A stretch of DNA of 64,000 nucleotides from a virus. The stretch covers positions 32,001-96,000 of IMG/VR virus record IMGVR_UViG_3300037478_000520. One strand, 5' to 3'. The first letter of the stretch is position 1; every line of letters begins with the position of its first letter. Shown piece by piece: positions 9,143-62,575 of this stretch. The notes below the pieces were generated by a model. It searched no databases. It was not told the origin of the DNA and was given only the letters and a program-made list of their open reading frames with translations. A program made the translations under genes and the position numbers.

Positions 9143-9547
9143 ATGGTGTGCTGGGAACACGGCCGCCAAGGAACCGGCTACCTCAAGCACAGGCTCGCAA
9201 GCGCCATGTGGCCGATCCCGTGGGACGTGTACTTGCTGAAGTTCCCGCCAGGCTCGCACATTCCAAGGCATCGGGATCTGTCCGTGCTTGGCCGTCACTA
9301 CCGCCTGAACGTGACACTGTGGAATGCGCACCCAAAGCACCCGTTCCAGTCCACAGGCTGGCTGTGGCGGGGATTTGGGCGCCGCGTGGTACTGTTCCGG
9401 CCGGACATTCACGCGCACGCTGTGCGGCGGATTGAGATCGGGACGCGGTACGTGTTGAGCTTTGGGTGGTTGTGCCGTGATCGTGATGGCCGCCAGCCCA
9501 TGGGGTCAGGAAGTTCTGAAGTTGCAGAAGGCTCTCGGCGCCTTTGA
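9143..9547 (+). CDS. 2OG-Fe(II) oxygenase-like protein
   Basis: HxD (RHRD), LFRPD..AHAV, TRYVLSFGW. Confidence 0.75.
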   Translation: MVCWEHGRQGTGYLKHRLASAMWPIPWDVYLLKFPPGSHIPRHRDLSVLGRHYRLNVTLWNAHPKHPFQSTGWLWRGFGRRVVLFRPDIHAHAVRRIEIGTRYVLSFGWLCRDRDGRQPMGSGSSEVAEGSRRL

Positions 9548-9556
9548 AGCCGAGAT
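9521..9556 (+). CRISPR. Solo degenerate CRISPR repeat
   Basis: GTTGCAGAAGGCTCTCGGCGCCTTTGAAGCCGAGAT, close to the array consensus with both helices intact. Confidence 0.85.
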
Positions 9557-9934: not shown

Positions 9935-9970
9935 AAAAAAACCCCCTGACCGCGCAAGGCGACCAGGGGG
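9935..9970 (-). terminator. Intrinsic terminator downstream of CRISPR array 1
   Basis: Minus strand CCCCCTGGTCGC-cttgc-GCGGTCAGGGGG followed by T7. Confidence 0.85.
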
Positions 9971-10017
9971 ATCAGAGATTCTTCAATGTCGTTCTGCTAG
10001 TTGGCAGGCTTGCCCGC

Positions 10018-10560
10018 CAAAGGCGCCGAGGGCCTTGTGCGACGTGCCGTGCTCGCAGTGCCAGAGCTTCCTTGCACCCTTGTCTCAGCTTCAAAGGCGC
10101 TGAGGGCCTTGTGCGACGGTCAGGGAAGTAGTGCGAGAGGTGCGCGTAGCCAAGTCTCAGCTTCAAAGGCGCTGAGGGCCTTGTGCGACGGCCGCCTCGT
10201 CCAGCACGTCCTTGTTCGGAGTTCGGTCTCAGCTTCAAAGGCGCTGAGGGCCTTGTGCGACCGCGAGGAGGCCGCCTGTCGAAGCGCCACAGATGAGGTG
10301 TCTCAGCTTCAAAGGCGCTGAGGGCCTTGTGCGACTCAACCGCCCTGCGGCGAGGGCCGCAAGTACCACCCTCATGTCTCAGCTTCAAAGGCGCTGAGGG
10401 CCTTGTGCGACTCGGCGATCACCTCGGCCATCACGTACCGTCGGTGCTCGCGTCTCAGCTTCAAAGGCGCTGAGGGCCTTGTGCGACTACCCGAGTCCGG
10501 CGCGCGCCACCGCGCTCGCCCCACGTCTCAGCTTCAAAGGCGCTGAGGGCCTTGTGCGAC
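10018..10560 (-). CRISPR. CRISPR array 1 (orphan): 7 full plus 1 truncated repeat, 7 spacers
   Basis: Minus-strand repeat GTCGCACAAGGCCCTCAGCGCCTTTGAAGCTGAGAC (36 nt); spacers 36-40 nt; leader at 10561-10752. Confidence 0.97.
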
Positions 10561-10752
10561 CGCTTCGTCAGATTGTCAAAGATCCCAAGCGCTTGCAAGC
10601 CGGTTTGCGAGAGCCTGTCGCTACGCGCTACAGGACGTCTACCACGGAAGCTGCTTTGGGCTGACGACCATCGGATTTCGCTAATATCCCCGCATTCTTA
10701 GCCAGTTTGCGAGCGGTCCCCGGGGTTGGCGCGCCGCCGGACCTCTCGCGAA
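10561..10752 (-). promoter_or_regulatory. CRISPR leader 1
   Basis: Near-identical reverse complement of 24472-24663. Confidence 0.85.
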
Positions 10753-10806
10753 TTTTAGCGTAGTTAATCTGCATTGGTCCAGCGCCCGATTCGTCAGAGT
10801 TACTCG

Positions 10807-11609: not shown

Positions 11610-13850
11610 CTATCCGTTCACAGAGAATTTCACGCCGCGGTCACCGTGTCGACTCGACGGCTTCACCACGAGCGGCATGGGGATCACGCTGGTGTTGACC
11701 ACGAGTGCTGGTGAGACCACCTTTTGGGGCGCCTTGGTGAGTGTGGGGCCGAATACCTGCGACGTGCTCTCGACCAGGTCCGGCGGTCCAACCAGCGGAG
11801 CGACGTCGGGTTCAAAGACAACGCTCGAACTCGGCGTGAGTGCGGGCGCCACTTCCGCTGGCGCCACCTTGGCGATGGTCGGCGCAAACACCTGCGACGT
11901 GCTCGACACGGCGTTCGGTAGGACGCTCGGTGCGACCGCCTTCGCAACCGTAGCCCCGAATACCGTCGAGCCACTGGGTACCAGGTTGGGTGCCGCCACA
12001 GGCACGGGGATAGCCGTCACATAGGGCGGCAACACCACCGCGAAATTGCCCACGAGGCTGGGCGATACCGTCTTTGGAGTCGCCTTGGAGACCGTCGGAG
12101 CGTAAACGGTGCTGGTACTGGCCACGATGTCCGGGAACATCTGGATGAGCTGCCCAACATCCGGCTCGAACACCTGCGATGTGCTCGGCACGAGTCCAGG
12201 TTCGACGGCCGGGACGGCTGCCTTGGCGACGGCGGGCGACGCAACGGTCGATGTGCTCGGCGTAAGTCCAGGCTGGACGCTTGCGGGGGTCGCCTTCGCG
12301 ATGGTCGGCGCAAACACTTGCGACGTGCTCGACACGGCGTCTGGCTCGACGCTGGCTGGCGTCGCGAGTGCCACGGTGGGTGCAAACACCTGGGATGAAC
12401 TGGAGACCGCATCGGGGACAACGCTCGCAGGGGTCGCCTTGGCGACGGTCGGGGCGAACACCGTGGACGAACTCGGAACCAGGTCAGGGGCCACGTCCCC
12501 GTCGTCGATTGCCACGGTGGGCCCGAAGACTTGCGACGTGCTCGCAACAACGTCCGGTTCGACGATGGCCGGCGTGGCTTTTGCTACCGTCGGACCGAAG
12601 ACCTGCGCAGTGCTCGCGACAAGGTCGGGTGGGCCGACTTCCTTGGGGGTCGCCTTGGCTACCGTCGGAGCGAAGACCTGCGCGGTGGATGCGACCAGGT
12701 CCGGTTGCACCTGCGGAACAGTTGCCTTGGCTACCGTCGGGCCGAAGACGGTCGCAGTGCTCGCCACCGCGTCGGGCTGCACTGATTGTGGCGTTGCTTT
12801 TGCCACGGTCGGTTGAAAGACCGTGGATGAACTCGGGACGATGTCTGGCTGCGCCGTCAGATCAGACAGCGCGACCGTCGGGCCGAAGACCGAAGAAGTG
12901 CTCGCAACCAGGTCCGGCTGCACCGATGCGGGAGTCGCCTTGGCAACCGTCGGGCTGAAGACCTGGGATGAACTCGCTACCGCATTCGGCTGCACTGACG
13001 CCGGCGTCGCCTTGGCGACGGTCGGCCCAAAGACTTGCGCAGTCGAAGCCACAGCGTTCGGCTGCACACTTGCTGGCGTGGCCTTCGCGACCGTCGGCCC
13101 GAAGACAGAGGATGTGCTCGCGATAAGATCAGGAGGACCGACCTCGATGTCGCCGCCTGGCGTGATGTACTTGGCCTCGAGGTACGCGCTGTTCGTGGCG
13201 ACGTCTGTGTCATCATGGACGACGTCGTAAAAGATCGCCGCGCACGCTCTGAAGTGCTGAAAGCTGCCGTTGAGCGAACGCCCGAACCGCGCGGTGTCCA
13301 TCGACGTTGCGCCAGTGAAGACGTCTGACGCCGTCACGACGTTGACCTCAACGCCGTTCTTGTAGAACGTCATCGCGTTGCCGACGTCGACAAGCGTTAC
13401 AGCCCAGACAGCCCACTCCACGAAGTCACCAGCCGTGGCAGCGTAGATTGCTCCAGAAATGTTGATCTCAAGCCGATCCGGAGCGTCCTGCGCCATGATC
13501 AACGGGAACGCTTGGTCTGCCTGGTTGCGGCCGTAGTTGAAGCCGACCTCGTCGGCGCCGTCATCGTAGTAGTATCCGACCTGATAGATGGTCCGATCTG
13601 AGTCTTGGTTGGGCAGGCCAGTCGGGCTAGCTTTCTCCAGCGACTCGTCGGTGCCGTTGAAGTCGACGTAATCGGCTCCGCTCGGCGTTCCACCAGCAAC
13701 TAACTCGCCACCGATGTCAGAACCGATAGGCGTGAAGTCGTTGCCCTGACCGCTTGAATCGGCCCACTCCGTGACTTCGGTCCCATCGAGCGAGATGCCG
13801 GTGTCGGACTCGAGATCAATCCGTCGGTTGGCCGTGATCGGCGTCGTCAC
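11610..13850 (-). CDS. Virion protein: LamG/ConA-like head plus about 19 tandem ~26-aa repeats
   Basis: Repeats of VQPDxVASTSQVFGPTVAKATPAS. Confidence 0.85.
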   Translation of the reverse strand: MTTPITANRRIDLESDTGISLDGTEVTEWADSSGQGNDFTPIGSDIGGELVAGGTPSGADYVDFNGTDESLEKASPTGLPNQDSDRTIYQVGYYYDDGADEVGFNYGRNQADQAFPLIMAQDAPDRLEINISGAIYAATAGDFVEWAVWAVTLVDVGNAMTFYKNGVEVNVVTASDVFTGATSMDTARFGRSLNGSFQHFRACAAIFYDVVHDDTDVATNSAYLEAKYITPGGDIEVGPPDLIASTSSVFGPTVAKATPASVQPNAVASTAQVFGPTVAKATPASVQPNAVASSSQVFSPTVAKATPASVQPDLVASTSSVFGPTVALSDLTAQPDIVPSSSTVFQPTVAKATPQSVQPDAVASTATVFGPTVAKATVPQVQPDLVASTAQVFAPTVAKATPKEVGPPDLVASTAQVFGPTVAKATPAIVEPDVVASTSQVFGPTVAIDDGDVAPDLVPSSSTVFAPTVAKATPASVVPDAVSSSSQVFAPTVALATPASVEPDAVSSTSQVFAPTIAKATPASVQPGLTPSTSTVASPAVAKAAVPAVEPGLVPSTSQVFEPDVGQLIQMFPDIVASTSTVYAPTVSKATPKTVSPSLVGNFAVVLPPYVTAIPVPVAAPNLVPSGSTVFGATVAKAVAPSVLPNAVSSTSQVFAPTIAKVAPAEVAPALTPSSSVVFEPDVAPLVGPPDLVESTSQVFGPTLTKAPQKVVSPALVVNTSVIPMPLVVKPSSRHGDRGVKFSVNG

Positions 13851-24284: not shown

Positions 24285-24471
24285 AACCCTGCAAAGAGTC
24301 TGAAAAGCCAATCGGTCAAACCGCGATGGACTGTCCGCATTGCGGGGCTAACCCCGCATCCCATCCAGCACCGCGCACAGCATCGCAATCGCGACGATCA
24401 GCGTTGCGAGATCGATAGCGTCGATCATTGTTCTGGCCTGTCTGCCACCCCCGGATGTGGGCGACGTCTGA

Positions 24472-24663
24472 TTCGCGAGAGGTCCGGTGGCGCGAAAACC
24501 CCGGGGACCGCTCGCAAACTGGCTAAGAATGCGGGGATATTAGCGAAATCCGATGGTCGTCAGCCCAAAGCAGCTTCCGTGGTAAACGTCCTGTAGCGCG
24601 TAGCGACAGGCACTCGCAAACCGACTTGCAAGCGCGTGGGATCTTTGACAATCTAGCGGACCT
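24472..24663 (+). promoter_or_regulatory. CRISPR leader 2
   Basis: Shared with leaders 1 and 3; ends GGGATCTTTGACAATCT. Confidence 0.85.
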
Positions 24664-25287
24664 GTCGCACAAGGCCCTCGGCGCCTTTGAAGCCGAGACT
24701 CCTGTGCTCCGGGCGGGGCGACCATTGCGAGGCAGTGTCGCACAAGGCCCTCGGCGCCTTTGAAGCCGAGACTTGTGCTCGAGGGCGCGCAAGGCATCGG
24801 AAAGTCTACCGCGGTCGCACAAGGCCCTCGGCGCCTTTGAAGCCGAGACGTGGGGGCGAGCGCGGTGGCGCGCGCCGGACTCGGGTAGTCGCACAAGGCC
24901 CTCGGCGCCTTTGAAGCCGAGACCGGCTGCAGGACGTGCTGGATTGGCTTGCGAGCCGGGGGGTCGCACAAGGCCCTCGGCGCCTTTGAAGCCGAGACGT
25001 GATCAGCCGCGTAGACCGCCAGCAGCGTCCACGCGGTCGCACAAGGCCCTCGGCGCCTTTGAAGCCGAGACTCTTGTTCTTGCATCTCTCCAAGAATCGC
25101 CCTATGGGGGTCGCACAAGGCCCTCGGCGCCTTTGAAGCCGAGACCCCAATCCCAGGTCGGAGACGGAACTCGCGCAGTCGTCGCACAAGGCCCTCGGCG
25201 CCTTTGAAGCCGAGACCGTAGGTCTGTGAGCACGTGGTGCAAGCCGATGGAGTATCACAAGGCCCTCGGCGCCTTTGAAGCCGAGAA
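24664..25287 (+). CRISPR. CRISPR array 2 (orphan): 9 repeats, 8 spacers
   Basis: Repeat GTCGCACAAGGCCCTCGGCGCCTTTGAAGCCGAGAC; degenerate last repeat. Confidence 0.98.
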
Positions 25288-46909: not shown

Positions 46910-48125
46910 ATGCGAAAACACCTGAACACAATTTGGCCGCGCGACGTCGCGGTAACCGCGGGTTGGCTGACGATCGCGACCGGGGGCTTTGCCTCGCTTG
47001 TGCTGCCGTTGCTGCAGCTGGGAGGTGCGCTGTGATCTACCGCGAGGACAACACGGAGGGGTACAGCGCTGCGGCGCTGGCTGAGCTGAACCGCCGCTGG
47101 GCCGAGCGCCACGCCGATCTCGACCCCGACGGCCAGGAGGGCAAGGTCGCTGCCGAGCTGCTACTCGCTGAGTTCGACGCCGAGATCGACCGCGGAGGTG
47201 CGCTGTGACCGACACCGAAAACCTGGATCTTTGCACGCACGTACAGTTCAGCCGGGGATCGCGGTCCTACCCTGGCACCGAAGCTGACTGGCAGGCGTAC
47301 CTGTCCCACGGGGGGAAGGGGACGCTGACGCGCTTACTGGCAGCTGAGCACGCGGGCGAGTGTCCAGCGTGTGCGAAGATCGCGGAGTCGGAAGGCGGTG
47401 CGCTGTGACGAGCTACACCGTACGCGGAGAGCGTGTCACACTCGACCGCGAAGGCGTCGCGCGGTCTCTAGCGCACGAATTGCGCGAGGTCGAACGGCTT
47501 AGCGCTGGTCGCTACAACCGCGACGAGCTTGCCGACACGCCAGCCGAACGCTGGGCTTATCTGCTGTGGTCGAGATCCGAGGTTGCGCGCTTCGCGGCGA
47601 TCCTACAGTGCATCGACGATAGCGTCGCACAGCTGCCCAAGACACTCTACCCCGGGGCTCCGCTGTGACGTTCTCGCACTTTTTCGGCGGCATGGCGATG
47701 TGCGGTGTTCACGTTGCGATCTACACGATCGAGGGGTCAAACGACGTCATCGCGCGTCTTGAGACGACCGGACGGAAGCCGATCGCTGCTCCACTGCGAC
47801 TAAGCCAGGAAGAGCTCAAGGCGATCCCTGGGAACAAGACGAAAAGCCTTGCGCATCTGATCAACGCCTGCAATCGGGGGTCGCTGTGATCGCGGACGCC
47901 ACCACGCCCGCCGATCACTCCGCGTTCGTGCGCGAGCTGACAGCGCTCTGCCGCGCGTACGGCGTAACACTCGACCTCCGGGCGGGCGATGGGTGCCCGC
48001 CCGAAGTCGCCTCCGCAGTCCGGGACGCGGATGTCGAAATTGTCCTCAGGCCGATCGACCCTAGCGACCTCGGAGAGTGGACCGAAACGAATTCAGGCGC
48101 GGTGTACTGGCCGATTCGCGAGTGA
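46910..48125 (+). other. Six translationally coupled small ORFs (46910-47035, 47032-47208, 47205-47408, 47405-47668, 47665-47889, 47886-48125)
   Basis: Each junction is a GG(A/C/G)G..CGCTGTGA stop/start overlap. Confidence 0.75.
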
Positions 48126-48207
48126 ATGGCTGGCGACGGGGCTTGGACTTCGGCCGAGCCCCAACGCGAGCGACTTTTTTCACTTCGAACAACAAGGGAA
48201 TACCGCC

Positions 48208-48735
48208 ATGACATCTTACACTGTAATCATAACGTGGGCGCTCGCCGCTAGCGCTGGGACCGGACAGACAACCGTCTGCTTTGAGGCCGCATCGCCCGAC
48301 CCTGCCAAGGCGGCCGTGGAAGCGTGGCGGACCCCCGTCACGCACAGCGGTTCCGCTGTAATCGAGTGGATGCCCGAAACCGCTGTAATCGCGTCCGTGC
48401 GGGCCGTGGCTGACGGGTGCGGCAAACATGCCCGCCCGTCCATCGCCAAGCCGCCCGAGGCGACAATCCTCGAGATTCCCGCTGCGACCTATCCCGCCAC
48501 CGTCCACTACCGCACGCCCGACGGATCGACGGCCCGATGCGACGCGACAATCCTGTGCTCCGGGCGGGGCGACCATTGCGAGGCCGTGATAGACCCTGGC
48601 GCCTGCACATCGCACTGGGGACTTGAGCAATGTCTCGCCAGCACCGTGGCCGTACCCGGCGACGATTCCGCCGATACCCTGGGGTGCGACCCGGGCGCCC
48701 GGCTGCTCGATATCGACTGGACGGACCCGCTGTAA
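48208..48735 (+). CDS. Hypothetical Cys-containing protein; carries the protospacer of array 2 spacer 1
   Basis: AAGGG SD; 48551-48587 matches spacer 24700-24736 at 36/37. Confidence 0.65.
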   Translation: MTSYTVIITWALAASAGTGQTTVCFEAASPDPAKAAVEAWRTPVTHSGSAVIEWMPETAVIASVRAVADGCGKHARPSIAKPPEATILEIPAATYPATVHYRTPDGSTARCDATILCSGRGDHCEAVIDPGACTSHWGLEQCLASTVAVPGDDSADTLGCDPGARLLDIDWTDPL

Positions 48736-59377: not shown

Positions 59378-59486
59378 AGCGCCGATCAGAGAAGGGGAGA
59401 TCGCCACAGTCACCAAACGACTGCGCGTCACACCCGAGCAAGCCGAGGAGCTGGAGCGGGCTCCAGCGCAAAAGAAGGAAACTTGA
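59370..59486 (+). CDS. 38-aa RHH-like ORF (not in the ORF track)
   Basis: AAGAAGGA SD, TTG start, KRLRVTPEQAEELER. Confidence 0.45.
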   Translation: MTRAPIREGEIATVTKRLRVTPEQAEELERAPAQKKET

Positions 59487-59488
59487 AA

Positions 59489-61588
59489 ATGCAAACCATC
59501 GCCTACAAATACCGGATCCTTCGCGTGCTCTCCGACGAGCGGGCTATCATGGACGAGATCCGAGCCGGTCACCGGCTCTACAACGATCTAGTCGCCATCG
59601 AGCGCAAGCGACGGGCCGCGACCGAGGCGTTCTGGGCTGAGCGTGGTGGGTACCAGGATCTTCTGGCCGAGCGTGGGAAGGCCATCGAATTCGCCGAGTC
59701 GATTCCCAAGGGCGATGATCGGCGCGAGGAGAAGCGCGCGGCATGGCGCGCTGTGAACGATCTGCGTAAGCAGATCTGGGAGTGCGAGAAGGACGCCATC
59801 AAAGCGTTCCACGCGAGCGATCCCGTGAAGATCCGCAGGATGGAACGCGCCAAGGAACTCCGTGCTGCTGCGAAGGCGCGCAAGGAAAAGCTAACGGCGA
59901 AAAAGATCGCGGACATTCTTGACGAGGAACCAGATTGCCTGACCGAGCGGGATAAGCTGCGCAAAACGCTTATCCAGAGCTACAAGGATCGCGGCGTCGG
60001 GATCAGTGCGAAAACCGTGGCTGGCAAGCTCGCAGAGGCATTCCCTGGTCCGACGGAACACGTCGAGCAGGAGGCGAAAGCCGCGGCGTACACAGCCTAT
60101 CGCGAACGCGGTGTTACGCCCGGTACGCGCGCGGTGGTTGCGGACGCGCATGAGCGCTCGCTTGAGATGCTCGAGTGGCGAGAGCAACGCTTCAAGCCGT
60201 GGTCCGGCCACGGCGCATTCGGAACGCAAATCCAAGGAGGCGCGACGTACGGCGACCTATGCAGTGGCAGCCACACGTTTGCTCAACTGGAGTGCCTCGA
60301 CCGCGGCAACTACACTCCTGGATCTCGCCGGCATGGCAGTCTGCACAGGCTACGCGTGCGCCTTGGGTCGGACGGTCAGAAGCCCGTCTGGGCGGAATTC
60401 GAAGCGAGCCTACTTCGCAGCGGCCCGCGTACGTCCGCGTCGACATCGGATCCGATCCCACCCGATGCGCGCGTAATGCAAGTGCGCGTGGTGGTCGACC
60501 GAATCGGCGTGCACGACCACTGGTACGTCTGTTTCACGGCTCAGGTTCCGGACGCCGTGCACTTGCGGGATGAGCCGCCGACGAAGGGCGGGACGGTGGC
60601 CATCGACATTGGGTGGCGCAGTTTGGACGGTGGTTTGCGGGTCGGATACTTCCACGACGGGCAAGAGCACGGCCCCATCGACCTGCCAACGATCCGCAAG
60701 CGACTCAAGCCGCACGGGAAGCGAGGCGCCAAGGCGAAGTGGTTCGAAGTGCGCGACGTGTTCGATCACGCGAGTCACATCCAAGGGATCCTGTCTCAGG
60801 AATTCTACTCCGAGGACAAGGATGCGGCCGTGTACGGCGGCGCCTTGCATGACCTAGCGGTCTGGATCGACTCGCGCGGGCGCGATGCTCTCCCCGAGTG
60901 GCTCTCCGAATCTACCGCCGGGATCCGACAGTGGCGTTCGCAAGCTCGGCTCAACGGACTAGTTGAACGATGGCTTCACAACCGTTTCGAGGGCGACGGT
61001 CAAATCGTCGCTCGCATGGATCAGTGGCGCAAAGACTATAGGCATTTGCATGAATGGTGCGCGCGGGAGAGAAACCGCGCCCTGAACGCGCGCGACGAGC
61101 ACTACAGGCAGACCGCGCTACGCCTCGCGCGCGCGTACGAAACGATCGTGATCAACGGCGCCGACCTTGCAACCACGCGCCGCCGCAAACGGAAAGAGAA
61201 GGCCGCCCCCGAGCTGGTCATGGTCGAGGATGCGAAGCGTTCGCAGGCCTTCGACGCCGCGCCGGGGAAGCTCCGGGAAGAGATCGTAAAGGCGGCAAAG
61301 AAGTACGGCCGGACACTGGTCAAATTGCCGTTCGAAACCGAGAGGTGTCACGTTTGCGGGGAGGTGTGTGAATTTGACCGTGCCCGCTATCTCTCACACA
61401 AGTGCGAGCACGAGCCATGCACAGCACAGTGGGACCAGGACGCCAACGCGTGCCTGAATGCCCTTCGCGAGTGGTCCGGTGGCGCGAAAACCCCGGGGAC
61501 CGCTCGCAAACGCGACAAGCCCGCGAAGTCACGTGAGAAAACGACGGGGCGCGGCGACGCAATAGGCGCTGTGAGCGATTCGCTGTAG
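59489..61588 (+). CDS. cas12m: Type V CRISPR effector, Cas12m (V-M/V-U1)-like, probably nuclease-deficient
   Basis: RLGSDG..PVW, TVAIDIGWRS (RuvC-I), QWRSQ.R, R.RAL..RDE.YRQ.A, IVINGADL (RuvC-II E>N), AAPG.LR, CxxC..C...C Zn finger, WDQD.NA (RuvC-III); adjacent 36-nt-repeat array. Confidence 0.88.
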   Translation: MQTIAYKYRILRVLSDERAIMDEIRAGHRLYNDLVAIERKRRAATEAFWAERGGYQDLLAERGKAIEFAESIPKGDDRREEKRAAWRAVNDLRKQIWECEKDAIKAFHASDPVKIRRMERAKELRAAAKARKEKLTAKKIADILDEEPDCLTERDKLRKTLIQSYKDRGVGISAKTVAGKLAEAFPGPTEHVEQEAKAAAYTAYRERGVTPGTRAVVADAHERSLEMLEWREQRFKPWSGHGAFGTQIQGGATYGDLCSGSHTFAQLECLDRGNYTPGSRRHGSLHRLRVRLGSDGQKPVWAEFEASLLRSGPRTSASTSDPIPPDARVMQVRVVVDRIGVHDHWYVCFTAQVPDAVHLRDEPPTKGGTVAIDIGWRSLDGGLRVGYFHDGQEHGPIDLPTIRKRLKPHGKRGAKAKWFEVRDVFDHASHIQGILSQEFYSEDKDAAVYGGALHDLAVWIDSRGRDALPEWLSESTAGIRQWRSQARLNGLVERWLHNRFEGDGQIVARMDQWRKDYRHLHEWCARERNRALNARDEHYRQTALRLARAYETIVINGADLATTRRRKRKEKAAPELVMVEDAKRSQAFDAAPGKLREEIVKAAKKYGRTLVKLPFETERCHVCGEVCEFDRARYLSHKCEHEPCTAQWDQDANACLNALREWSGGAKTPGTARKRDKPAKSREKTTGRGDAIGAVSDSL

Positions 61589-61656: not shown

Positions 61657-62575
61657 GTATCAGAAGGCCCTCGGCGCCTTTGAAGCCGAGACCAGATGGC
61701 GTTGTGCATCTGGTTGTCGAGCCGCCGGGTATCAGAAGGCCCTCGGCGCCTTTGAAGCCGAGACCGCGACTGGCTTCATTCGGTTACTTTTTTCGATACT
61801 CGTATCAGAAGGCCCTCGGCGCCTTTGAAGCCGAGACACGCCCATGTCCGAGCCGCAGCGAAGCGCGTCGCCTCGTATCAGAAGGCCCTCGGCGCCTTTG
61901 AAGCCGAGACAGGGGGACCGCTCACCCGCAAGAGCGCTTTCAGCCGGCGGTATCACAAGGCCCTCGGCGCCTTTGAAGCCGAGACCCGCACGTCCGGATC
62001 GGCGAGCACCGGCGGTACGTGAGTATCAGAAGGCCCTCGGCGCCTTTGAAGCCGAGACTCTTGTTCTTGCATCTCTCCAAGAATCGCCCTATGGGGGTCG
62101 CACAAGGCCCTCGGCGCCTTTGAAGCCGAGACGCGCGCTGGAATGGTGGCGCTGCGCATCGGCGCGATCGTCGCACAAGGCCCTCGGCGCCTTTGAAGCC
62201 GAGACTAACACCCGGGCGCTGTTACCAAACACCCCAAGGCAGGGGTCGCACAAGGCCCTCGGCGCCTTTGAAGCCGAGACCGCGCGGCGCCGAAGCCGAA
62301 GGCGAAGCCACTCGCGCGCGTGTCGCACAAGGCCCTCGGCGCCTTTGAAGCCGAGACACGGGAGTCATCTTCGTGACCGGAACGAATACCCAGTCGCACA
62401 AGGCCCTCGGCGCCTTTGAAGCCGAGACTGTTTGGCGACGGCGCGAACTCCAAGTCGACCATCCTCGGTATCAGAAGGCCCTCGGCGCCTTTGAAGCCGA
62501 GACACTGATCACGACCTACGCGAGGTGGTCGCCGACGTGGTATCACAAGGCCCTCGGCGCCTTTGAAGCTGAGAT
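61657..62575 (+). CRISPR. CRISPR array 3 (cas-adjacent): 13 repeats, 12 spacers
   Basis: Core AAGGCCCTCGGCGCCTTTGAAGCCGAGAC with 5' variants GTATCAG, GTATCAC and GTCGCAC. Confidence 0.98.

Follow-up and report, generated by a model that had tools for sequence, protein, structure and literature searches.

Which gene has a virus sampled when one of its CRISPR (clustered regularly interspaced short palindromic repeats) spacers spells out the active-site motif of an enzyme family, and against whom could such a spacer be used? The question is raised by spacer A4, located at 10262-10299 of a 64,000-nucleotide (nt) window that comprises bases 32001-96000 of the IMG/VR record IMGVR_UViG_3300037478_000520 (113,660 nt in total, with a CheckV completeness estimate of 82%). 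The record encodes a terminase, portal, prohead protease, major head protein, tail sheath, baseplate wedge and tape measure and is, as judged from its genes, a myovirus-type tailed phage. It carries three CRISPR arrays (A, B and C) with a single 36-nt repeat family and 27 spacers in all, together with the gene for a Cas12m-like effector. Spacer A4 very probably derives from a gene of the patatin family (PF01734). A broader explanation, that A4 is a Cas12m roadblock guide captured from a CapV-related patatin of an unsampled organism or mobile element, has about an even chance of being correct. The first-pass annotation of this DNA had gone further, proposing that a catalytically dead Cas12 is programmed by A4 to repress a host anti-phage gene, namely a CapV-like effector of a cyclic-oligonucleotide-based antiphage signaling system (CBASS).

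The assignment of 10262-10299 as a spacer and its reading in the orientation of the CRISPR RNA (crRNA) are both confirmed. A4 lies exactly between perfect 36-nt repeats at 10226-10261 and 10300-10335. Array C, when its repeats are oriented in the same way, is co-directional with the effector gene and starts 69 nt past the stop codon of that gene. The 195 nt upstream of array A (as reverse complement) and of array B are almost identical, and conserved blocks of this leader recur upstream of array C. The terminal repeat of array A is degenerate (8 mismatches) and lies at the distal end of the array with the terminator. In crRNA orientation the repeat has a 3'-proximal 6-bp hairpin ending 2 nt before the spacer, which is preserved in arrays B and C by a compensatory change from A:U to G:C. 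The co-directional effector gene, the leaders, the distal repeat with its terminator and the hairpin thus all place the crRNA of array A on the minus strand (Table 1).

Frame 3 of the reverse complement of A4 translates to LICGASTGGLLA, which fits the patatin nucleophile elbow G-x-S-x-G placed after two hydrophobic residues and before G-h-h-A. The aspartate that had been set in brackets before this peptide is one of several possible residues, since only the bases AC of its codon lie within the spacer and these are compatible with GAC but also with an Asn, His or Tyr codon; the peptide itself stands. A position matrix was derived from 52 unique patatin nucleophile motifs of viral-contig genes; homology of the proteins, for the most part of their DGGGIRG box, had led to these loci independently of A4. 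On this matrix LICGASTGGLLA scores 25.2 bits, compared with 26.8-43.1 bits for true patatins; among the remaining 227,250 six-frame 12-mers of the entire phage the highest score is 8.0 bits. Of 200,000 38-mers drawn at random from the genome none reached the score of A4, and no other spacer scored above -12.8 bits. A codon-usage model trained on 14 phage genes, which finds the right frame for 73% of fragments of 35-41 nt, gives the patatin frame of A4 a posterior of 0.74.

Pattern scans led to the same family. Nine loci in 241 million metagenome records contain DNA that encodes LI[CGAS]GASTGG and, directly after it, two hydrophobic residues, any base being allowed at wobble positions. Five of these loci encode full-length Pfam patatins (E 1e-24 to 5e-31), all with a DGGGxRG box about 35 residues upstream of the motif, and one encodes a patatin-like fragment; the remaining three consist of a 1264-residue open reading frame (ORF) without a Pfam match and two that are not credible genes. 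The viral scan yielded one patatin and two short ORFs of 58-92 residues. No other protein family appeared among the metagenome and viral matches. Homologues that carry the motif all have DGGGxRG upstream, the catalytic Asp (DGG) downstream and a full-length match to the hidden Markov model of the family. The first-pass identification of the motif is therefore upheld, and the matrix score together with pattern scans that return patatins is the reason for the high probability given to a patatin origin.

The effector that would use A4 is a Cas12m homologue by sequence comparison. Its best matches are Cas12m structure PDB 23vw (E 2.4e-36) and MmCas12m2 (8pm4, 7e-13), with sub-threshold matches to Pfam Cas12f1-like_TNB and NCBIfam TnpB, and a CxxC...C motif is conserved in it. 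The ORF is intact and conserved in eight homologues. In the clade of nine proteins, which are 30-57% identical, RuvC-I D373 and RuvC-III D649 do not vary. The RuvC-II residue, which lies in the conserved stretch TIVING, is Asn in the effector and its four closest homologues, while 23vw has Glu and MmCas12m2 has Asp; elsewhere in the clade the residue is Ser or Arg in two proteins and Glu solely in the most distant member. Since the catalytic triad is D-N-D, the protein presumably binds DNA without cutting it. The "dead Cas12" of the first-pass annotation is thus well founded as to Cas12m homology, and the replacement of Glu by Asn is consistent with the binding-only function that the term implies. 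The closer homologues (38-57% identity) are located on metagenome contigs; a single-protein scan of IMG/VR gave no relatives, and a profile scan gave relatives of 26-31% identity alone. The Cas12m proteins described in the literature mature their crRNA themselves and bind double-stranded DNA beside T/C-rich protospacer-adjacent motifs (PAMs) without cleaving it; they protect against phages and plasmids through a block of transcription and/or replication (PMC10442227; PMC11013384).

In the explanation considered here, a segment from the nucleophile-elbow region of a CapV-related patatin-like phospholipase gene would have been captured as A4. Array A would be transcribed from the minus strand, the transcript would be matured to a crRNA that contains A4 and has a repeat handle with a 3' hairpin, and this crRNA would be loaded onto the Cas12m-like effector of the phage. 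Because the guide has the sequence of the sense strand, its partner in the patatin gene would be the template strand. Template-strand pairing is the best orientation for roadblocks by catalytically dead Cas12a, though it is not known to be so for Cas12m. Once bound, the complex would obstruct transcription and/or replication of the DNA that carries the patatin. The most likely target would be a stand-alone patatin of the clade with the motif VDLxAGxSTGGLLA, carried by a competing phage, a mobile element or an accessory island. A4 would then be one of 27 guides that a temperate phage deploys in conflict between genetic elements, and the catalytic motif would merely render it recognisable among the spacers. 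Outside the window, at G000:C1:23551-24120, a 423-residue open frame contains a tyrosine integrase (Pfam Phage_integrase, 64.8 bits), and the phage is therefore probably temperate.

The relatives of the sampled gene can be divided into stand-alone and CBASS-linked patatins. The nearest matches to the spacer peptide, with 11 of 12 residues, are L037 (29 of 38 nt), L035 (28 of 38 nt) and the viral contig L122/L051 (26 of 38 nt), all of which read DLIAGASTGGLLA / VDLIAGASTGGLLAL. All patatins with the GASTGG variant reach 195-290 bits with the PADLOC models of CBASS phospholipase effectors, and their best PDB matches are the CBASS phospholipases activated by cyclic GMP-AMP (cGAMP), so that it is reasonable to place them, at the broad level and on sequence grounds, in a CapV-related group. 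To this extent the proposed link to CapV is retained. A CBASS neighbourhood is not supported: neither a cyclase nor an E2 gene accompanies the 11-of-12 matches L037 and L051/L122 or 14 further members of the clade. In 17 genomic contexts of nearest matches and clade members, some of them on phage contigs, no cyclase, E2 or conserved partner gene is present. The situation that the first-pass annotation had named as contrary to its proposal, a phage-borne patatin or one outside any defence context, is accordingly encountered by proxy, in homologues of the sampled gene. The nearest match L037 is about equally distant from CapV of the Vibrio cholerae type (52 bits) and from plant patatin (54 bits).

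The stand-alone clade consists of patatins of about 308 residues, for which 2,711 proteins were collected at E <= 1e-30, a set that may be wider than the clade. Its hallmark is VDL[IV]AGTSTGGLLA, with GGLLA in about 100 of the top 120 members, and its closest named matches are from Anaerolineales, Chloroflexi and Thermoanaerobaculales. In samples from GTDB it occurs in 5 of 401 Acidobacteriota (at >=50% identity) and 6 of 401 Chloroflexota, in none of 401 from the phylum of G002 (Nitrospirillum, Pseudomonadota), and in 1 of 76 genomes within one order. The distribution is patchy, like that of accessory genes. Neighbours are shared only as plain synteny in three related Chloroflexota genomes. 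More remote members, which are 43-46% identical to L037 and share 5-8 of 12 motif residues with the spacer peptide, are found on viral contigs, one of them directly preceded by a GH108 endolysin gene and others among genes for methyltransferases, glycosyltransferases and deaminases; the neighbours of L051 are all hypothetical.

Some loci of this clade have features of their own. At L041:5418-6903 a stand-alone patatin of about 310 residues directly follows a GH108/PG_binding_3 endolysin, a position that suggests a role in lysis or envelope degradation, and the same phage-carried clade is present in L046, L054 and L051. In an Acidobacteriota genome (L137:7300-13300, G129:C20) the patatin lies in a block of small ORFs of about 6 kb in which the guanine plus cytosine (GC) content of third codon positions is 0.52-0.72, compared with >=0.8 in the flanking genes; the block looks like a horizontally acquired island. 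Among the PADLOC matches listed for the neighbourhoods (25 of 40 families; 34 neighbouring ORFs), Ser/Thr kinases occur at two loci. A kinase partner of the patatin (matches of the PD-T4-6 type) was considered and rejected, as it is seen at two of the five Acidobacteriota loci only and was judged to be chance adjacency in kinase-rich genomes.

CBASS-linked patatins are well represented among the loci examined. L039:285-2393 is a bona fide CBASS operon with a cyclase (380 bits, SMODS domain), an E2 and a patatin that reads DLIAGASTGGIIA, and at L033 an E2 gene neighbours the patatin. A cyclase neighbour was found at no fewer than 12 of 80 patatin loci on IMG/VR viral contigs, contigs that had been fetched for their patatin gene; from this frequency CapV-type CBASS is a common cargo of viral or proviral DNA. 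The CBASS-linked patatins match 6-9 of the 12 residues of the spacer peptide and mostly read FDLIxGTSTGGIIA, i.e. GGIIA. Cys at the position found in the spacer was seen once, in the CBASS-linked patatin of L101. Taken together, the chance that A4 came from the stand-alone clade appears somewhat better than even; a CBASS effector is an unlikely source, another kind of patatin less likely still, and a source other than a patatin improbable.

The other spacers bear on the kind of conflict in which A4 may serve. Spacer B1 (24700-24736), which is nearest the leader in array B, agrees in sense orientation with ORF 47989-48735 of the phage itself at 36 of 37 positions, and this near-self match is the sole protospacer known for the 27 spacers. 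The site may be a non-target, its flank GCGACAA not being a T/C-rich PAM. B1 could have been taken from kin phages, giving kin exclusion with self spared by the missing PAM, or it could serve self-regulation. Spacers B2 (24773-24813) and C11 (62429-62467) encode Walker-A boxes in their sense frames, VLEGAQGIGKSTA and FGDGANSKSTIL, and appear to resemble the P-loops of phage or plasmid primase-helicases, i.e. of replication proteins of mobile elements. Recognition of this kind is subject to ascertainment bias, spacers being recognisable only where they cover a conserved motif. Because of the near-self match of B1, the Walker-A reading of B2 and C11 and the known biology of Cas12m, a conflict between mobile elements is favoured over a targeted disarming of host defence.

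Spacers A6 (10412-10451) and C5 (61986-62022) overlap by 21 nt with one difference, and are therefore two separate acquisitions from alleles of one gene. Spacers B6 (25072-25109) and C6 (62059-62096) are identical, and A7 (10488-10524) and B3 (24850-24887) are set apart by one extra G; evidently the arrays exchange or share spacers. Over all 27 spacers there is no significant strand bias, 15 of 27 being called sense by the codon model, which miscalls B1.

Several observations weigh against a roadblock guide taken from a stand-alone patatin. The combination of Cys and Ala in LICGAS is absent from every real patatin examined. The log-odds of the 12 residues for the stand-alone over the CBASS-linked group is only about +1.5 bits, too little for the spacer by itself to tell the groups apart, LL favouring the stand-alone group and Cys weakly favouring the CBASS group. 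The stand-alone clade is also chromosomal, occurring on long contigs and in synteny in three Chloroflexota genomes, so that a host gene is a possible target. The protospacer of A4 was found in no collection searched. With blastn, the whole of array A gave only chance matches (E >= 0.1) against 50,697 phage records and 72,556 plasmids, as did arrays B and C against the same phage records. Neither the exact 38-mer of A4 nor either of its 19-mer halves occurs in IMG/VR, and the wobble-free pattern of A4 (24 fixed bases) has no match in the viral, genome and metagenome collections. In 185,579 species genomes the LICGASTGG pattern gave eight matches, all of them due to chance and located in another frame or without a fitting context. 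No protospacer for any of the 27 spacers was found with blastn-short in 1.25 Mb of fetched loci. A 46-residue probe carrying the spacer peptide returned 287 candidates from 5.8 billion proteins, none of them with CGAST. The phage's own genome contains no match to A4 at the DNA or peptide level and no patatin or SMODS gene. The Logan contigs of four phage-holding runs leave the spacer uncovered, with repeat-only pieces of 31-37 nt reported, and are no evidence either way. As the protospacer is in none of the collections searched, the owner of the patatin gene is unsampled, as is the case for most environmental spacers.

Among the alternatives, the anti-CBASS role survives best, though it remains the less likely reading. 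Here A4 would direct the non-cutting Cas12m to a capV-type CBASS effector gene on the host chromosome or in a resident prophage, and the phage would escape abortive infection. The PADLOC scores and PDB matches of the motif-variant patatins are in keeping with this, as are the pattern matches in or beside CBASS genes at L039 and L033, the cyclase-linked patatins of viral contigs and the Cys shared with L101. The phage ICP1, whose CRISPR system is aimed at the phage-inducible chromosomal island-like element (PLE), provides a precedent for CRISPR as anti-defence. However, neither a protospacer nor a CBASS context of A4 itself was found, so that a host anti-phage gene, as first proposed, is not supported as the target: no host location or CBASS neighbourhood can be assigned. 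The CBASS-linked patatins match the peptide less well and mostly have GGIIA instead of GGLLA, the matches of 11 residues lack cyclase and E2, and the other spacers point to phage or mobile-element targets. Moreover, CapV would normally be made before infection and transcriptional silencing should then be of no help in a first lytic infection; repression would therefore be useful only from an established prophage. The integrase would make such long-term repression, before induction, feasible. The specific form of this scenario, in which the temperate phage from its prophage state represses the CapV-type effector of the host or of a rival prophage and so disarms the defence before induction or superinfection, is a little less probable than the general one.

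It is also doubtful that A4 targets a stand-alone chromosomal patatin of the phage's host, such as a lipid hydrolase of Acidobacteriota or Chloroflexota, whereby host physiology would be reprogrammed in lysogeny. The chromosomal occurrence and synteny of the GGLLA clade agree with this possibility, the GC content of the stand-alone loci (57-62%) resembles that of the phage (61%), and the phage carries an integrase and is present in at least 24 metagenome runs from sediment and soil, where Acidobacteriota and Chloroflexota abound. Host inference failed, however. The terminase is at most 29% identical to those of cultured phages and at most 38% identical to those of prophages in the Acidobacteriota and Chloroflexota samples. 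The 241 million metagenome records, in which the source sample is probably represented, contain no exact or wobble-tolerant match, and the benefit to the phage is unclear.

That A4 is an inert relic, part of an array inherited or recombined from an ancestor whose original target is no longer met, is improbable. The record has no adaptation genes (cas1, cas2), a target of A4 was found nowhere, cultured phages gave none for the three arrays and plasmids none for array A, and the sharing of A7~B3 and B6=C6 suggests recombination rather than fresh acquisition. Yet the repeats of array A are perfect, the leaders share a conserved stretch of 195 nt, promoter and terminator signals are present, and the effector ORF is intact and conserved in its homologues, while the missing target says little, most environmental spacers being without database matches. 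Least probable of all is a chance resemblance, A4 stemming from a non-patatin sequence or another frame and the motif being a coincidence of GC-rich DNA: only 12 residues are involved, the exact peptide is in no real patatin examined and the GxSxGG nucleophile elbow is common to alpha/beta hydrolases, but the matrix score far above the noise ceiling and above every random 38-mer, the frame posterior and the lack of any other family among the pattern matches speak clearly against it.

CRISPR systems carried by phages have precedents. The type I-F CRISPR-Cas of ICP1 is reported (Seed et al. 2013) to destroy the DNA of the PLE island in Vibrio cholerae, with known protospacers. Like the present system it is phage-borne, and it is aimed at a host-resident anti-phage element; it differs in that it cuts, whereas the effector here is probably binding-only and no protospacer of A4 was found. 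Huge phages reportedly carry arrays for CasPhi/Cas12j with spacers against competing phages and sometimes host genes (Al-Shayeb et al. 2020; Pausch et al. 2020). These share with the present locus a compact type V effector and arrays without adaptation genes, but differ from it in having DNA-cutting effectors of another Cas12 subtype. With CapV and other cGAMP-activated CBASS patatins (PDB 8zr9, 9kh7) the link is the nucleophile elbow DLIxGxSTGG, which the spacer peptide fits; on the other hand, the best motif matches to A4 lack a cyclase, and the target is known here from the spacer alone.

To the type V-M family the locus adds a new member that is carried by a phage. It shares with Cas12m systems (MmCas12m2, GoCas12m; PDB 23vw, 8pm4) the effector homology, a single effector with an adjacent array, the lack of adaptation genes and a non-canonical RuvC site. 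It differs in the size of the effector (701 residues versus about 580-610), in the triad (D-N-D here, H-D-D in MmCas12m2, Glu kept in 23vw, D-E-D in the canonical site), and in being phage-encoded and serving three dispersed arrays. MvCas12m of the myxophage MV-1 has 610 residues, reportedly keeps D-E-D, has one adjacent array and no cas1, cas2 or cas4, and is self-described as the first of its kind; protospacers for its 8 spacers were not found (bioRxiv 10.64898/2026.09.14.751636). Both are phage-encoded Cas12m proteins with an adjacent array and no adaptation genes, but the present phage has three arrays with 27 spacers, one near-self match and one spacer assignable to a gene family.

Phage-borne Cas12m has thus been reported once so far, in a 2026 preprint in which no spacer was assignable. 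The advance made here is modest: a spacer of a phage Cas12m can be assigned to the patatin family, which includes cell-killing CBASS effectors. Should a defence effector prove to be the target, the phage would provide the first natural example of a virus that turns transcriptional CRISPR interference, rather than cutting, against host immunity, and with the silencing of a CBASS effector the theme of ICP1 and PLE would gain a novel variation. Should it be the patatin of a rival phage, the compact three-array Cas12m system with its natural near-self target would offer a model of binding-only CRISPR competition. A by-product of the analysis is a widespread, patchy and partly phage-carried clade of stand-alone CapV-related patatins.

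Table 1. Coordinates of the spacer, arrays, effector gene and associated features in the window, and CBASS loci used for comparison
Feature	Position	Strand	Description
Spacer A4, fourth of array A	10262-10299	-	38 nt; crRNA-sense xLICGASTGGLLA, patatin nucleophile elbow
CRISPR array A	10008-10560	-	7 perfect 36-nt repeats and degenerate terminal repeat 10008-10043; 7 spacers, 36-40 nt
Leader of array A	10561-10780	-	nearly identical to array B leader; promoter-like site 10781-10752
Intrinsic terminator closing array A	9942-9970	-	12-bp stem then T run; reads 9970-9942, strong
CRISPR array B	24664-25287	+	9 repeats, 8 spacers
Leader of array B	24444-24663	+	likeness to array A leader
CRISPR array C	61657-62575	+	13 repeats, 12 spacers; directly downstream of effector gene, same strand
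Cas12m-like effector gene	59483-61588	+	701 residues; RuvC-I Asp and RuvC-III Asp retained, RuvC-II position Asn
Near-self protospacer of B1	48551-48587	+	inside ORF 47989-48735; 5' flank GCGACAA; spacer position 35 mismatched
CBASS operons, complete or partial	L070, L073, L075, L080, L085, L092, L101, L105, L112, L115, L116, L120		cyclase, often E2, patatin

Two further features of the window lie near array A. A solitary repeat-like unit at 9521-9556, about 450 nt beyond the end of the array and in the opposite orientation, has 6 mismatches to the array A repeat, retains the hairpin and partly coincides with the end of ORF 9143-9547. It is followed by a 44-nt pseudo-spacer with no match elsewhere in the phage; the unit could be a solitary-repeat regulator or a decoy. 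A minus-strand ORF of 746 residues at 11610-13850, which adjoins a BppU-like baseplate gene and has no Pfam match, consists largely of diverged tandem repeats of 69-72 nt (23-24 residues), and probably encodes a tail fibre or a decoration protein of repetitive structure.

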